A stretch of 64,000 bases of DNA from the sequence record NC_024125.2; one strand, 5' to 3'. Below, one piece after another: positions 5,763 to 10,515 of this stretch (position 1 is the first letter of the stretch; each line of letters begins with the position of its first letter). Position numbers and translations under genes: made by a program. Below the pieces are notes generated by a model, which ran no database searches, was not told where the DNA came from, and saw only the letters and a program-made list of their open reading frames with translations. This DNA is from Escherichia phage vB_EcoM_112.

Positions 5763-6074
5763 CCTTGCGGCAACCTTGTCGGGGTTCCACCTGCTAAGGC
5801 AAGTGTTTGTACGAAACGCCGGGATTCGAACCCGGTTATCAAGCAGTTGACGCTACTCAATATTTTAAAAGGCCATATCTCGACCATATCCGAACGTTCC
5901 GTCAAAAACGCTACTCGGCTTACGGCAAAGATATTTCCTCGAATCGATAATTCGGTGCGCCGTTTCTGCTGTGATGTAAGGGGATATTAACAAATCGTAA
6001 AGATTTATTAAGACCAGTCCTTACTCAGGGAACATCAGTCCGACGACTTACCGGTAGCGACCCGGTTTCTTGTC
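5763..6074 (-). ncRNA. candidate stable small RNAs (T4 rnaC/rnaD-like region)
   Basis: 312 bp with no ORF between tRNA-Arg and a terminator; minus strand has tRNA-like T-arm CCGGG-TTCGAAT-CCCGG near 5815..5835; T4 encodes two stable RNAs next to tRNA-Arg. Confidence 0.4.
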
Positions 6075-6151
<77 letters not shown>

Positions 6152-6155
6152 TAAT

Positions 6156-6821
6156 TTAAAATTTCATTTTTCGACCTTTAAACCATCCTTCTGGAATTGG
6201 GTCAGTTTTCTTAATACGTTTAGAAACTTTTTCATCTAATGAATGAATCCACATCATACCGAATTGGGAATTCTTTTCACCTTTCTGGTGATTATTTTTG
6301 GCGTGAGATTCTTTCATTTTATTAATAGTTTCAGGAGTATGGGTCTTACCCAAGAAAGATTTAGTATTTAAAAATTTCTCTCTATACTTAGGATTATCCC
6401 AAAGCTGTTTAAACCTTTCTGAACCCATTTTACGATATTTTTCTTTAAGGTCTGGGTCGTTCTCAAATCTGGTTTTAAAAGCGGCAGCTCCTTTTAAGGA
6501 AGCTTCTTTCTTTTTATCCAAATATTCTTTAGTGTTTAAATGGTCCCAACCACCTTCACCACCTAATTTCAAATTATAAACATCAGGGCGCTTTAAAAAC
6601 TCTTCAGTCACAATATTCTTTTCTAACTCAAACATAGAGGTTTTATCGTCAAAGAACTCTAATATTTCTTTAGAAAAATTTTCTATACCATACTTATCTT
6701 GGGCTCTTTTTAATAATTTACCAGAACCCATATATCCATCATCTAAATTTTCGGTAGAATGAGCGCCTATATAGATTTTATTATTAATTTTATTTGTTAT
6801 TTTATAAATGTAATGGAACAT
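6156..6821 (-). CDS. segB: GIY-YIG homing endonuclease
   Basis: 221 aa; N-terminal GIY-YIG motif (HYIYKITNKINNKIYIGAH); lies inside the tRNA cluster as T4 segB does. Confidence 0.85.
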   Translation of the reverse strand: MFHYIYKITNKINNKIYIGAHSTENLDDGYMGSGKLLKRAQDKYGIENFSKEILEFFDDKTSMFELEKNIVTEEFLKRPDVYNLKLGGEGGWDHLNTKEYLDKKKEASLKGAAAFKTRFENDPDLKEKYRKMGSERFKQLWDNPKYREKFLNTKSFLGKTHTPETINKMKESHAKNNHQKGEKNSQFGMMWIHSLDEKVSKRIKKTDPIPEGWFKGRKMKF

Positions 6822-6862
6822 AAATATCTCCTATTTCTAAGAGTATTTATGTTCCCAAAATA

Positions 6863-6934
6863 TGGCCCTGGGTGGAATTGAACCACCATCTGGCGATTAT
6901 GAGTCGCTTGCTTGAACCTTCCAGCTACAGGGCC
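6863..6934 (-). tRNA. tRNA-Ile (anticodon CAU)
   Basis: Acceptor GGCCCTG/CAGGGCC, anticodon loop CTCATAA, T-arm GGTGG-TTCAATT-CCACC; no encoded CCA. Confidence 0.7.
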
Positions 6935-6940
6935 TTGATA

Positions 6941-7013
6941 TGCTGATTGGCGGAATCGAACCGCCGACGTCCTCATTACAAGTGAGGTGCTCTACCTACT
7001 GAGCTAAATCAGC
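6941..7013 (-). tRNA. tRNA-Thr (anticodon UGU)
   Basis: Acceptor GCTGATT/AATCAGC, D-arm GCTC..GAGC, anticodon loop CTTGTAA, T-arm GGCGG-TTCGATT-CCGCC. Confidence 0.8.
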
Positions 7014-7020
7014 GAAATTA

Positions 7021-7107
7021 CGGAGGCGATAGGATTCGAACCTATGAGTCGCCGGAGCGACTGCCGGTTTTCAAGACCGGTGCATTAAACCACTCTGCCA
7101 CGCCTCC
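7021..7107 (-). tRNA. tRNA-Ser (anticodon UGA), class II
   Basis: Acceptor GGAGGCG/CGCCTCC, anticodon loop CTTGAAA, long variable arm, T-arm TAGG-TTCGAAT-CCTA. Confidence 0.8.
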
Positions 7108-7109
7108 AG

Positions 7110-7183
7110 TCTCCGCGGCAGGATTTGAACCTGCGACATTCTGCTCCCAAAGCAGACGCTCTACCAAACTGAGCTACACGAAG
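7110..7183 (-). tRNA. tRNA-Pro (anticodon UGG)
   Basis: Acceptor CTTCGTG/CGCGGAG with G-U pairs, anticodon loop TTTGGGA, T-arm GCAGG-TTCAAAT-CCTGC; only 2 nt from tRNA-Ser (Pro-Ser dimer). Confidence 0.75.
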
Positions 7184-7195
7184 TAAATTAAATTT

Positions 7196-7267
<72 letters not shown>

Positions 7268-7273
7268 AAACTT

Positions 7274-7360
7274 TGGTACGAGAAGTGGGACTCGAACCCA
7301 CAAGGAAATCATTCCGCAGCATTTTAAGTGCTGTGCCTTTACCAATTTGACCATTCTCGC
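7274..7360 (-). tRNA. tRNA-Leu (anticodon UAA), class II
   Basis: Acceptor GCGAGAA/TTCTCGT, anticodon loop CTTAAAA, long variable arm, T-arm GTGGG-TTCGAGT-CCCAC, encoded CCA. Confidence 0.8.
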
Positions 7361-7361
7361 G

Positions 7362-7434
7362 CTGGGAATAAAGGACTCGAACCTTTGCATCTAGCAGTCA
7401 AAGTGCTATGCCTTACCAACTTGGCTAATTCCCA
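7362..7434 (-). tRNA. tRNA-Gln (anticodon UUG)
   Basis: Acceptor TGGGAAT/ATTCCCA, anticodon loop CTTTGAC, T-arm AAAGG-TTCGAGT-CCTTT; 1 nt from tRNA-Leu (Gln-Leu dimer). Confidence 0.8.
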
Positions 7435-7531
7435 ATTATTAACAAAGGCTCTCAAGCAAGAACCCTTGATGATAGAGGGTATTAATCAGTGCGGTATGAG
7501 TTAATAATAACAAATAATTCTTAAAGCATAT

Positions 7532-7819
7532 TTACCATTTATGATGATACATACTTACGATGCATTCAAGACCCAAAGAATTCTTGAAAATATCATATTC
7601 AAGAGGACCTTTTTCTGTTTCAATAAAGAAATCAAAATTTACTGTATTAAATTTACGGTCTTCCTTTACTAATTTAACTTGAGAAGATGAACGGTCAATG
7701 TAAACCTTTTCAACTTCAAAACATGTTAAAATGCCATAATCATCAATCAAGGCTTTAGCTGCTTCTTGATCATATTTATATCCATTTTCAACGGATGATA
7801 CTTTTGCATAAAGAATCAT
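7532..7819 (-). CDS. hypothetical protein
   Basis: 95 aa ORF between tRNA cluster and internal-protein-like locus. Confidence 0.55.
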   Translation of the reverse strand: MILYAKVSSVENGYKYDQEAAKALIDDYGILTCFEVEKVYIDRSSSQVKLVKEDRKFNTVNFDFFIETEKGPLEYDIFKNSLGLECIVSMYHHKW

Positions 7820-7821
7820 TA

Positions 7822-8205
7822 TCAGCCTTCATCAACAATAGTATGAGTATGGGCATTTACAATTTGCCACCAATCAAAGCGATTAGAACCATACATCGGT
7901 TTGTTTTCATTTTCTTTGATAATATCACGGAGTTCATCTTCAGTAGCGGCTTTCGCGATTAAATCAGCATATCCACCACGAGGATAATAATTATCACCTG
8001 CAAAAAGTAAAAAATTTGGTGTAATATTATTGAACTCTTCAAGAGTAATAACTGTTCCTGATGGTAGTTGAACAATCTCTACATAGTTATATCCTAATTT
8101 TTGAGCAGCATCTACTGCTTCAAGCAGGGTATCATGAGCCCGTCCTATTTGGCAATTTGGCTTTTTAGATGGATTAGCCTGATAATCCGCGTACACTTTA
8201 TACAT
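7822..8205 (-). CDS. hypothetical protein (127 aa from ATG at 8205)
   Basis: Track ORF 7822..8238; ATG at 8205 (MYKVYADYQ) has RBS AAAGGTGA and avoids overlap with the upstream ORF. Confidence 0.55.
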   Translation of the reverse strand: MYKVYADYQANPSKKPNCQIGRAHDTLLEAVDAAQKLGYNYVEIVQLPSGTVITLEEFNNITPNFLLFAGDNYYPRGGYADLIAKAATEDELRDIIKENENKPMYGSNRFDWWQIVNAHTHTIVDEG

Positions 8206-8206
8206 T

Positions 8207-8392
8207 CTATTCACCTTTAGAAATTTTATCCATAACAATAGCGATTAAACCAATTAAAAATGCTACTACAAGTGAAAACACATTTTCTGCTGTAGTCAAT
8301 AATCCACATATAAATCCAACAAACATTGAAAAACTAAAAGCGGAAGCAGAAATTGCAATAGCAACATTTCGAATTAATTCACAACGTTTCAT
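8207..8392 (-). CDS. hypothetical small membrane protein (61 aa)
   Basis: Almost entirely hydrophobic (AIAISASAFSFSMFVGFICGLL...VVAFLIGLIAIV); first gene after promoter element at 8412..8450. Confidence 0.5.
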   Translation of the reverse strand: MKRCELIRNVAIAISASAFSFSMFVGFICGLLTTAENVFSLVVAFLIGLIAIVMDKISKGE

Positions 8393-8411
8393 TTTATTCT
8401 CCTCAGTAGTA

Positions 8412-8450
8412 GATAGGGTAATAGTATCACTACCCTATCTAAAAGTAAAC
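8412..8450 (-). promoter_or_regulatory. early-type promoter with inverted repeat (promoter/stem-loop element), copy 1
   Basis: Minus strand: GTTTAC (-35), about 18 nt, TACTAT (-10); perfect inverted repeat gatagggta-atagtatcac-taccctatc on the spacer and -10. Confidence 0.55.
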
Positions 8451-8684
8451 TTATTTTTTACGAAAAATTGATTTATATTTATCAGCCCATTTCTCGATGA
8501 CTTTTTCTGGTCCATAGATAACAAAATAATCACCAAACTCTTCACCACCGAGTTGACCGAAATTATCTAATGCATCACGAAGAACTCCATGAGGCATTTC
8601 GCCCATTTTATCTTTCTTGCCAATGTAAATAAACTCAACTTTTACATCAGCAGCTTCAGCAATAAATTCTTGATACATTTTCAT
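8451..8684 (-). CDS. CTS-bearing internal-protein-like protein (77 aa)
   Basis: ATG at 8684 preceded by GGAG; N-terminus MKMYQEFIAEA; track ORF extends to 8702 through a non-ATG codon. Confidence 0.65.
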   Translation of the reverse strand: MKMYQEFIAEAADVKVEFIYIGKKDKMGEMPHGVLRDALDNFGQLGGEEFGDYFVIYGPEKVIEKWADKYKSIFRKK

Positions 8685-8711
8685 TTTATTCTCCAATTTC
8701 ACATTTGTTTT

Positions 8712-8750
8712 GATAGGGTAATAGTATCACTACTAAAACCCCGTGTAAAC
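8712..8750 (-). promoter_or_regulatory. early-type promoter with partial stem-loop, copy 2
   Basis: gatagggtaatagtatcactac...gtaaac; minus-strand -35 GTTTAC and -10 TACTAT retained, right stem arm degenerate. Confidence 0.5.
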
Positions 8751-8762
8751 AACTTTGTGAAA

Positions 8763-9020
8763 TTATTTTAAATCTTCTAATCGTTTCTTCATCTTAGAAC
8801 CGTTCTTAGCGATTTCTCCTGCATCAGAGCATAATGCTAAAAGTGCTTTAACTTTAGTTTGGTCTCCTTTAAAAGACGAAGGATCGACTGCAGCAGCAAG
8901 TTCTTTAATACGAGAGAAAAGACGCTCAGCTTCAGCTAAAGCCATTCCAAGCTTTACTTCCATACCGTGGGAAGATTCAGTGATAGTAGTTTTTGTAGCA
9001 AACTCTTTGAAAGTTTTCAT
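8763..9020 (-). CDS. internal-protein-like protein with CTS-like N-terminus (85 aa)
   Basis: N-terminus MKTFKEFATKTTITE; RBS AGGAAAA; own upstream promoter element. Confidence 0.6.
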   Translation of the reverse strand: MKTFKEFATKTTITESSHGMEVKLGMALAEAERLFSRIKELAAAVDPSSFKGDQTKVKALLALCSDAGEIAKNGSKMKKRLEDLK

Positions 9021-9041
9021 TTTATTTTCCTAATTAATTTT

Positions 9042-9080
9042 GATGAGGTAATAGTATCACTACCTCATCAGCATGTAAAC
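9042..9080 (-). promoter_or_regulatory. early-type promoter with inverted repeat, copy 3
   Basis: gatgaggta-atagtatcac-tacctcatc: stem retained by paired changes relative to copy 1 (GG to AG and CC to CT); -35 GTTTAC at 9075..9080. Confidence 0.55.
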
Positions 9081-9092
9081 AACTTTATGAAA

Positions 9093-9789
<697 letters not shown>

Positions 9790-9790
<1 letters not shown>

Positions 9791-10515
9791 TATAGTACCT
9801 TTAGTGTATTTTTAATTTTAGAAAAAAGTTCTTCAAGAGAACCATCATTTGTAATTACTAAATCGCCATCACGAATTGGCAATCCAGCTTCTGTAATATG
9901 TGTATCATTGGATTTTTGACCAGGACGAACTACATGAATTACTGTAGCACCCATCGCCCTAGCCGCATCCATTTCATGATCTTGACGAGTATCAGGAACG
10001 ATATAATAATCATAACCTGAGTTAAATTTATCAAGATAATCTAAAGCAAATAATTTTACCCAGTACATGCGATCGAAGTTATTAACAATCAAATCCGTAC
10101 CTAGGGCTTGCATCAGACGACGGACTGACCATTGATCTTCAATATTATTTATAACGTCAATAATCTTGTTAAATGCTACGGAATTAACTGATTCTTGTCC
10201 TTCGTCATCAAAAACAAACACACCCTTAATTGGGCTTTTACCATTAAGATAGCAAAATGCTTGTTCCATAATCGTGATTACTTCTAATTTAGTCAGATTT
10301 AAATTAGTCTCACGATCATAGTCAATTCCTTCAAACTCTTTACGAGTTAAGCAAGGATAGTCGGTGTTTGCTGCAAATACTCCCCATGCATAAGCCAATG
10401 CATCCTTAATAGGACCAGCAAGTTGGTATTTAACTGCAGAATAATTGCTCATGATAAAATCAGCAGTAGTATCTTTTCCACTACGCTTTACACCGCTTAA
10501 AAATATTAGTTTCAT
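9790..10515 (-). CDS. 1: deoxynucleoside monophosphate kinase gp1
   Basis: 241 aa from ATG 10515 (MKLIFLSGVKRSGKDTTADF), P-loop GVKRSGKDT; track ORF has a 13-codon extension. Confidence 0.9.

Follow-up and report, generated by a model that had tools for sequence, protein, structure and literature searches.

The three minus-strand open reading frames (ORFs) at 8392-7532 of a 64,000-nucleotide stretch of Escherichia phage vB_EcoM_112 (sequence record NC_024125.2; this whole stretch is hereafter the window, and its numbering is used throughout) are, as judged from sequence, the orthologues of the T4 early genes trna.4, trna.3 and trna.2, and we are highly confident of both this identity and the architecture of the cassette. 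The overall explanation that best accounts for the observations, and which we consider evenly poised between right and wrong, is that of an early cassette co-transcribed with the adjacent tRNA genes, whose products would act as stoichiometric, non-enzymatic binders, with Trna.2 acting in the tRNA supply chain. The reading of these products as binders rather than enzymes is favored by the small size of all three and by the acidity of the two that are soluble. The genes and their families are already catalogued and, as a finding, the cassette is already known; trna.4, trna.3 and trna.2 have stood on the T4 map for about forty years without an assigned function. Thus, the description of these ORFs as uncharacterised in the original prediction holds with regard to their function, but not with regard to their novelty.

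The window belongs to a T4-like (Tequatrovirus) genome, and its DNA at 7400-8750 displays 94-99% identity to hundreds of Escherichia, Shigella and other T-even phages. In the annotated records of T4T and RB14 the layout is the same, with the three ORFs named trna.4, trna.3 and trna.2, and both tblastn searches and annotation recover the same gene order, namely the internal-protein (ip) gene or genes, trna.4, trna.3, trna.2 and tRNA-Gln. The three genes, trna.4 (8392..8207, minus strand, 61 amino acids [aa]), trna.3 (8205..7822, minus strand, 127 aa from its ATG) and trna.2 (7819..7532, minus strand, 95 aa), were correctly delimited in the original prediction and are separated by gaps of merely 1 and 2 nt. 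The 138-aa middle ORF offered by the ORF-listing program begins at a TTG codon at 8238, within trna.4; the ATG at 8205 is preceded by a ribosome-binding site of its own, AAAGGTGA, and agrees with the annotated start in relatives. The genes lie in the same order and at the same position as those of T4 (UniProt P13322, P13323 and P13324), on the same strand and with the same spacing; identity reaches 100% for Trna.4 (against T4T), 97% for Trna.2 and, by manual count, about 87% for the C-terminal domain of Trna.3. The window differs from T4 in having two ip cassettes upstream, where T4 has a single ipI. In the PHROGs collection Trna.4, Trna.3 and Trna.2 correspond to phrog_1692, phrog_1411 and phrog_2023, respectively. 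In agreement with the earlier statement that no motif could be assigned, scans of the three proteins with Pfam (in a copy that did not include the PF26894 model), NCBIfam and PADLOC returned nothing significant, and searches of PDB sequences with both single sequences and family profiles returned no match. Likewise, neither homology to housekeeping proteins nor an essential role in morphogenesis came to light, either of which would have spoken against the accessory functions originally proposed.

All three ORFs are real genes under purifying selection. In pairwise comparisons of four phages (the window, T4T, RB14 and teqhal), trna.4 shows no nonsynonymous as against 3-6 synonymous differences in every pair, while the ratio of nonsynonymous to synonymous substitution rates (dN/dS) is 0.13-0.35 for trna.2 and 0.02-0.40 for trna.3. 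The early expression supposed in the original prediction is borne out by time-resolved omics of T4, in which trna.2 and trna.3 are early as both RNA and protein and trna.4 is early as RNA, its protein being undetected (PMC9697503); such non-detection is expected for a hydrophobic peptide of 6.5 kDa. In a genome-wide T4 knock-down with dCas13d (CRISPRi-ART) all three genes were scored 'Not Fit', i.e., they had no measurable requirement on the laboratory host (PMC11879866), and this dispensability fits an accessory role. The benefit they confer would be conditional, depending on hosts or defences missing from laboratory strains. As for their distribution, tblastn places each gene in 759-802 phage records as compared with 1556 for the core deoxynucleoside monophosphate (dNMP) kinase. 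The genes are near-universal in T-evens of Escherichia, Shigella, Salmonella and Yersinia and patchy in Klebsiella phages, and T4-like phages of Aeromonas, Acinetobacter and Vibrio are absent from the host groups listed among the tblastn matches. That roughly half of the sequenced T4-like phages keep these genes implies a real benefit outside the laboratory.

The original prediction had the three genes driven by a promoter/stem-loop element, and such an element is indeed present, with a compact unit behind it. Recognized by sequence and folding at 8410..8450 on the minus strand, it comprises a -35 hexamer GTTTAC (8450-8445), a 17-nt spacer and a -10 hexamer TACTAT (8426-8421), the latter two being overlapped by a 14-bp hairpin (8441-8410), which folds at -18.5 kcal/mol (z = -4.5; equalled by 0 of 200 shuffles). 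The element is followed by a Shine-Dalgarno sequence, GAGGAG (8404-8399, minus strand), placed 6 nt 5' of the trna.4 ATG. Two near-identical copies of the element, at approximately 9080-9040 and 8750-8712, each precede an ip gene. A generic sigma-70 scan lists these two upstream copies and omits the 8450 copy because TTTACT/TACTAT scores 8/12 matches, which is under the listing threshold. The hexamers, the 17-nt spacing, the overlapping stem-loop, the intergenic site, the Shine-Dalgarno sequence and the repeated copies together point to a promoter-early stem-loop (PeSL) architecture with predicted promoter activity. In T4-type phages, the promoter of such elements drives the next gene, the hairpin attenuates upstream transcription and the repeats mediate the shuffling of cassettes (PMC2839356). 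The PeSL-type promoter ahead of trna.4 would probably be active immediately after infection, and its start site should fall a few bases past the -10 hexamer, within the 3' arm of the hairpin; the hairpin would therefore form only in RNA whose synthesis began farther upstream. This hairpin lacks a U-tract, and its activity as a terminator is only assumed.

From this promoter, a single polycistronic mRNA would carry the three translationally packed ORFs. Since no terminator-like site follows (none is seen anywhere in 7300-9800), the transcript probably extends into the tRNA cluster, whose first member, tRNA-Gln, begins 97 nt 3' of trna.2 and shares its strand; in that case the early tRNA precursor would have the three ORFs as its coding 5' leader. 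We regard co-transcription of the ORFs with the tRNAs as likely. Additionally, between trna.2 and tRNA-Gln there is a MotA-box-like sequence, identical in T4T and RB14, which forms part of a candidate MotA-dependent middle promoter (7528-7504, minus strand) comprising TGCTTTA at 7528-7522, a 12-nt interval and TATTAT at 7509-7504; its reading as a putative middle promoter follows the T4 middle-promoter consensus. Such a promoter would keep the tRNAs expressed later without the ORFs. The cluster itself, as delineated by ARAGORN and Rfam, comprises tRNA-Gln, Leu, Gly, Pro, Ser, Thr and Ile(CAU) at 7434-6863, followed by the gene for the GIY-YIG homing endonuclease segB (6821-6156) and by tRNA-Arg (6075-6151), all on the minus strand. 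A 3' CCA is encoded by only tRNA-Leu and tRNA-Arg; the remaining six of the eight (Gln, Gly, Pro, Ser, Thr and Ile(CAU)) lack it in the DNA and therefore need trimming and CCA addition after transcription. T4 depends on the CCA-adding enzyme and RNase BN of its host for its CCA-less tRNAs.

Within the cassette, Trna.2 is the member whose gene neighborhood is its most informative property. The protein matches phrog_2023 over residues 1-95 (3.1e-47), and its homologues carry the precomputed PF27001 (Phage_T4_Y07B) assignment, with a median isoelectric point (pI) of 5.0 across the family. A structural model built from a 51-sequence alignment (predicted local distance difference test [pLDDT] 93; predicted template modelling score [pTM] 0.82) has an N-terminal helix packed on a small β-barrel, suggesting that Trna.2 is an acidic SH3-like barrel. 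The model aligns with SH3/KOW-like barrels (uL24, the Spt5 KOW domain and the InlB SH3-like repeat) over 50-63 residues, from which it differs in its added N-terminal helix and acidic surface, the resemblance being one of fold class only.

In T4-like loci of several genera, the Trna.2 gene lies directly upstream of tRNA genes, in sets ranging from 2 to 21, and in Erwinia phage Cronus a Trna.2-like gene is found inside the tRNA cluster, 3 nt before tRNA-Lys. Beyond the T4-like phages, a 74-kb N4-like contig has a PF27001 gene 218 nt upstream of eight tRNAs, a 164-kb contig has eight tRNAs 1.8 kb upstream of the PF27001 gene, and a 104-kb contig has a PTH2 peptidyl-tRNA hydrolase 1.7 kb upstream of it. 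Further, all the rV5-like loci examined, namely those of PVP-SE1, the SSE-121-like records, Proteus phage Mydo and four metagenomic contigs, have the PF27001 gene upstream of a phage CCA-adding enzyme, with 0 or 1 ORF between the two; in Mydo the interval holds one ORF and an inserted HNH endonuclease. Mydo also offers a fusion: its gp122 (198 aa; L004 2189-2785) joins a counterpart of a 105-aa PVP-SE1 protein (59% identity) to the PF27001 protein, whereas the two are encoded in PVP-SE1 by separate genes with a 4-nt overlap (L007 4687-5291). This provides a Rosetta-stone hint, drawn from gene structure, that the 105-aa protein and the PF27001 protein might work together.

Other features of these loci may be recorded alongside. 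In the N4-like metagenomic contig L009 (SRR20314574), the PF27001 gene, eight tRNAs and a gene of the Tad2-like (anti-Thoeris) family are arrayed on one strand at 6001-8404, in a row that adjoins the gene for a giant virion RNA polymerase. In the rV5-like locus L007, a weak PTH2-like ORF and an RlaP nucleotidyltransferase (6997-7485 and 8382-9443) are situated downstream of the pair formed by PF27001 and the CCA-adding enzyme, and a clear PTH2 is present near the PF27001 gene in L047 (3899-4333); the PTH2, RlaP and CCA-adding enzyme context in these loci may represent a small tRNA- or RNA-repair neighborhood. The N-terminal extensions of the PF27001 ORFs in L041, L043 and L047 were set aside as fusions, being mostly stop-to-stop read-through of upstream sequence.

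The original prediction favored host-takeover or anti-defence functions for all three genes. There is no direct evidence for such a function, and the sole experimental hint comes from T4-infected cells, in which just two phage proteins, Trna.2 and Inh, were enriched with DRT1 (a protein-primed polymerase that works independently of a template) in its wild-type form as compared with its reverse-transcriptase-dead mutant; this enrichment of Trna.2 was left without follow-up by its authors (PMC13275509). The tracking of the Trna.2 family with tRNA genes, the CCA-adding enzyme and PTH2 points to tRNA biology over generic takeover, and the co-purification with DRT1 might be part of the same tRNA story. 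In mechanistic terms, Trna.2 might partner or protect the maturation or repair of the 3' (CCA) end, which is needed by six of the eight phage tRNAs; another possibility is that it inhibits a tRNA-attacking factor of the host. Such a tRNA-linked role for Trna.2 is tentatively put forward, as a possibility on the lower side of even. The wider generalization, that PF27001 and perhaps also the Y07C domain of Trna.3 described below are phage factors of tRNA homeostasis or of tRNA-directed counter-defence, is more doubtful still; under it they would serve as adaptors, small and acidic, that accompany the tRNA clusters, CCA-adding enzymes and PTH2 of T4-, rV5- and N4-like phages and either secure the 3'-end (CCA) maturation and repair of phage tRNAs or neutralise tRNA-attacking host effectors.

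The second soluble protein, Trna.3, has a composite architecture. Structure prediction, which the original prediction had proposed for this protein first, yields an AlphaFold2 (AF2) model (pLDDT 85.6) with two β-β-α-β-β units, at residues 1-60 and 64-127. The C-terminal unit (residues 64-127; 7822..8016, minus strand) bears the signature NFLLFAGDNYYPxGGxxDL ... FDWWQIVNAxTHxIV, which across the family reduces to GDxYYPxGG ... WW(Q/H)IV(N/D). Trna.3 matches phrog_1411 at 4.1e-55, and its 99%-identical homologue P0001 carries the precomputed PF26894 (Phage_T4_Y07C) assignment; a profile built from stand-alone Y07C members matches residues 64-127 at 1.9e-26. A profile search of 1.8 billion cluster representatives recovered 571 relatives at E <= 1e-3, almost all of which match the C-terminal half alone and most of which are stand-alone proteins of 55-100 aa. 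The C-terminal copy is a member of this widespread phage family, whose stand-alone proteins measure ~65 aa. One match of the profile, the 2031-aa P0080, was rejected as a repeat-protein false positive. Upon comparison with hhalign, the alignment of the N-terminal domain (residues 1-63; 8017..8205, minus strand) aligns with the C-domain family over the whole domain and in register (probability 91.7%; E = 8e-7), and because of this in-register alignment Trna.3 is understood as a tandem of two Y07C-like domains, the first copy of which is degenerate and has lost the signature. Nature provides a second Y07C tandem in P0150, as well as fusions to an XRE-type helix-turn-helix (HTH) domain (P0093) and to a Cys-rich segment (P0105).

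The number of Y07C copies differs among T4-like genera. The Gelderlandvirus phages (STML-198, SEA1 and Melville) have the single-domain version only, of 70-71 aa (L003 2289-2501), and Kanagawavirus has an additional stand-alone copy just upstream of the two-domain Trna.3 (L006 1922-2113). Within Tequatrovirus, two alleles of the N-terminal domain are only about 30% identical, as against about 87% for the C-terminal domain (manual count): the Trna.3 of the window is of the teqhal type (127 aa; about 94% identical), while T4 and RB14 have a 136-aa version with the other N-domain allele. Trna.3 has a pI of 4.8 (family median 4.65). We infer that it is a binder built as a pseudo-dimer, with one conserved and one adaptable face. 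A Foldseek search of BFVD with Trna.3 returned only uncharacterised phage proteins, and paralogues of neither the Trna.3 nor the Trna.2 family are present elsewhere in the window. Y07C and Y07B co-occur in T4-like phages alone and are therefore independent modules; no recurrent neighbor family accompanies the stand-alone Y07C loci. Their tendency to lie near tRNA genes is weaker than that of PF27001, with two examples 0.6 and 1.5 kb from tRNAs and most having no tRNA nearby. On an unrelated viral contig, L079, a stand-alone Y07C ORF within a 10-tRNA cluster (5920-6240) exactly fills the gap from tRNA-Trp (5839-5912) to tRNA-Lys (6251-6326). In the literature searched, neither the tandem nature and N-domain allelic swap of Trna.3, nor the breadth of the stand-alone Y07C family, nor the association, seen in several lineages, of PF27001 with tRNA genes, PTH2 and the CCA-adding enzyme was found, and no main-text mentions of trna.3 or trna.4 were encountered there.

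Several considerations weigh against the proposal of a co-transcribed cassette of binders with Trna.2 at work in tRNA supply. Eight distant PF27001 lineages (L010-12, L014-18, L041-44 and L046, mostly smaller or temperate-looking contigs) have neither a tRNA nor a tRNA enzyme within about 6 kb of the gene. The tRNA association was noticed post hoc and without a matched control, the synteny within the T4-like and within the rV5-like phages is inherited so that each group counts as one observation, and the tRNA regions of large phages are hyperplastic and gather small ORFs, such that adjacency may lack functional meaning. Further, the acidity of both soluble proteins speaks against simple RNA binding, the model gives little certainty on how the two domains of Trna.3 are arranged relative to each other (pTM 0.58), and the Trna.4 protein has never been detected. 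Co-transcription, for its part, is deduced from the absent terminator motif and from older T4 literature. Finally, the searches found no homologue with a solved structure or characterised activity, and a function has been shown for none of the three proteins. The results on the domain architecture and allele swap of Trna.3, the breadth of the Y07C family and the tRNA neighborhood of PF27001 are modest and hypothesis-generating.

The strongest alternative, to which we accord a substantial chance that nonetheless falls short of even, is that the three genes are accessory 'morons' unrelated to one another that belong to a hyperplastic region, each with its own anti-defence or host-takeover target, and that their adjacency to the tRNAs is an accident of PeSL-mediated shuffling. 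A cassette that is early, small, non-essential and flanked by PeSL elements, which are known to shuffle ORFans, is what this alternative would lead one to expect, as are its counter-defence neighbors, i.e., Acb1 (9093-9548) and the internal proteins. Allele swapping of the Trna.3 N-domain inside a single genus is what a surface engaged in an arms race would show; stand-alone Y07C genes are found without a recurrent neighbor; distant PF27001 members lie among genes for RecT, Apyc1 and methyltransferases; and the co-purification of Trna.2 with DRT1 is compatible with a defence-related target. However, the order trna.4-trna.3-trna.2-tRNA is constant across T4-like genera even as the ip cassettes and tRNA sets vary, and in N4-like and rV5-like phages, too, PF27001 has tRNA genes or the CCA-adding enzyme beside it. 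Moreover, the three proteins match no known anti-defence fold or PADLOC model, and Trna.4, rather than diversifying, is invariant in the four Tequatrovirus genomes.

Trna.4 invites a separate alternative. The original prediction called it nearly all hydrophobic, and with a grand average of hydropathy (GRAVY) of 1.22 it is hydrophobic over about residues 9-32 and again over about 38-54; the turn LTTAEN connects the two stretches, which are bounded by the short, charged termini MKRCELIRN and MDKISKGE. It matches phrog_1692 at 6e-35 over residues 1-61, and its full-length match to the T4 protein, its two hydrophobic helices and its site between an ip cassette and trna.3 place it in the Trna.4 family; the T4T record annotates trna.4 as 'predicted membrane protein'. 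Trna.4 is predicted to be a two-helix hairpin of the inner membrane, both ends of which should, by the positive-inside rule, face the cytoplasm. Across T4-like genera, conservation falls on both termini (N-terminal MK.xE.IRN and C-terminal VMDKI), on a face of helix 1 that is rich in Ser and Ala (FSxSMFxGF) and on the turn (LTTxEN); this pattern, together with the invariance in the four Tequatrovirus genomes, suggests a specific partner over a generic membrane anchor. These same features, namely the two helices with charged termini, the conserved face, turn and termini, and the invariance (at least 99% identity in 427 phage records), together with the early transcription of trna.4 in T4, could also be accommodated if Trna.4 were a membrane-acting early factor unrelated to the soluble pair, serving in superinfection exclusion or immunity, in lysis timing, or as an antagonist of a host inner-membrane protein or of an abortive-infection (Abi) effector that disrupts membranes. 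This reading appears unlikely: trna.4 is always linked to trna.3 and trna.2 in T4-like phages, the peptide went undetected in T4 proteomics, its knock-down had no phenotype, and it has no similarity to characterised membrane peptides.

A less probable suggestion, which we would put well down the scale, is that Trna.3 and other Y07C proteins are ligand sponges, in which the GDxYYPxGG loop and the WW strand would form an aromatic/acidic pocket, and dimers or the built-in tandem would sequester a small immune signal or a nucleotide. The conserved aromatic and acidic signature, the wide occurrence of small, acidic, stand-alone versions in phages, the tandem and HTH-fused forms that suggest a dimerising or sensing module, and the location of trna.3 about 0.9 kb from Acb1 would all be in keeping with this. 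On the other hand, the aromatic residues may merely form the core of a 64-residue domain, and Y07C is without a known ligand, oligomer or phenotype. Lastly, the notion that the ORFs are non-functional and merely the transcribed leader of the tRNA precursor, though in line with the absence of a knock-down phenotype and of Trna.4 from proteomics, is rejected as scarcely credible on the dN/dS and T4 proteomic evidence, i.e., strong purifying selection on all three ORFs and the detection of Trna.2 and Trna.3 as early T4 proteins, as well as on the confident AF2 folds of both soluble proteins and their homologues in unrelated phages without tRNAs.

Turning to the surroundings of the cassette, the ORF list and family matches identify two ip genes, at 9020-8763 and 8702-8451 (minus strand); of the two ORFs of this locus (8451-8702 and 8763-9020), one matches phrog_8111 and the other the Ip5-like phrog_3499, and each cassette has its own PeSL element, providing an example of PeSL-framed cassette polymorphism. 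Upstream of these, at 9548-9093 (minus strand), is a full-length Acb1 (T4 gene 57B; Pfam Acb1 match 2.6e-60), an anti-CBASS phosphodiesterase with both H-x-T/S motifs of the 2H phosphoesterases. On the other side, segB sits within the tRNA cluster as in T4, while teqhal and RB14 carry extra tRNA-Tyr, Asn and His there instead. ARAGORN additionally reports a 94-nt 'tRNA-Lys(UUU)' at 5809-5902 (minus strand), which Rfam does not report at its gathering score; its location with respect to tRNA-Arg makes it the probable counterpart of rnaC (species 1), a tRNA-like stable RNA of T4. Rfam found no RNA family within the three ORFs.

The tRNA has recently emerged as a major battleground between phages and immunity, with anticodon nucleases, PARIS, retrons, OLD and Cas12a3, which cuts tRNA tails, all deployed there. 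If Trna.2 does maintain or protect the phage tRNAs, a protein component would be added to a counter-measure that has been seen as purely RNA-based. Independently, Y07C emerges as a widespread, uncharacterised small phage module for which Trna.3 offers a tractable model in T4. Were both the tRNA and the Y07C readings to fail, the region would be an ordinary early cassette of accessory genes that probably shares a transcript with the tRNAs.

Comparison with known systems helps to place these observations. The element ahead of trna.4 resembles the PeSL cassettes (Arbiol et al. 2010, PMC2839356; PMC4122927) in its strong sigma-70-like promoter, the stem-loop over the spacer and -10 hexamer, the Shine-Dalgarno sequence of the next gene and the repeats that precede successive small accessory genes. 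It differs from those described in RB49 and phi1 in that its copies frame the ip genes of a Tequatrovirus, and in that the third copy precedes three genes followed by tRNAs, not one lone ORFan. With respect to the products, none of the three showed sequence or fold homology to known anti-defence proteins or nucleotide sponges (Acb1, Acb2, Tad1, Tad2, anti-CRISPRs and Dmd). The small, early, stoichiometric binders of T4 include Dmd (an antitoxin against RnlA and LsoA), Stp, Arn and IPI, and T4 also encodes Cef, a tRNA-processing factor. While there is no sequence or significant structural homology to any of these five proteins, and the likeness is one of mode of working only, the products of the trna.4-trna.3-trna.2 cassette are, like Dmd, Stp, Arn and IPI, early, small, dispensable on laboratory hosts and devoid of an enzymatic motif.

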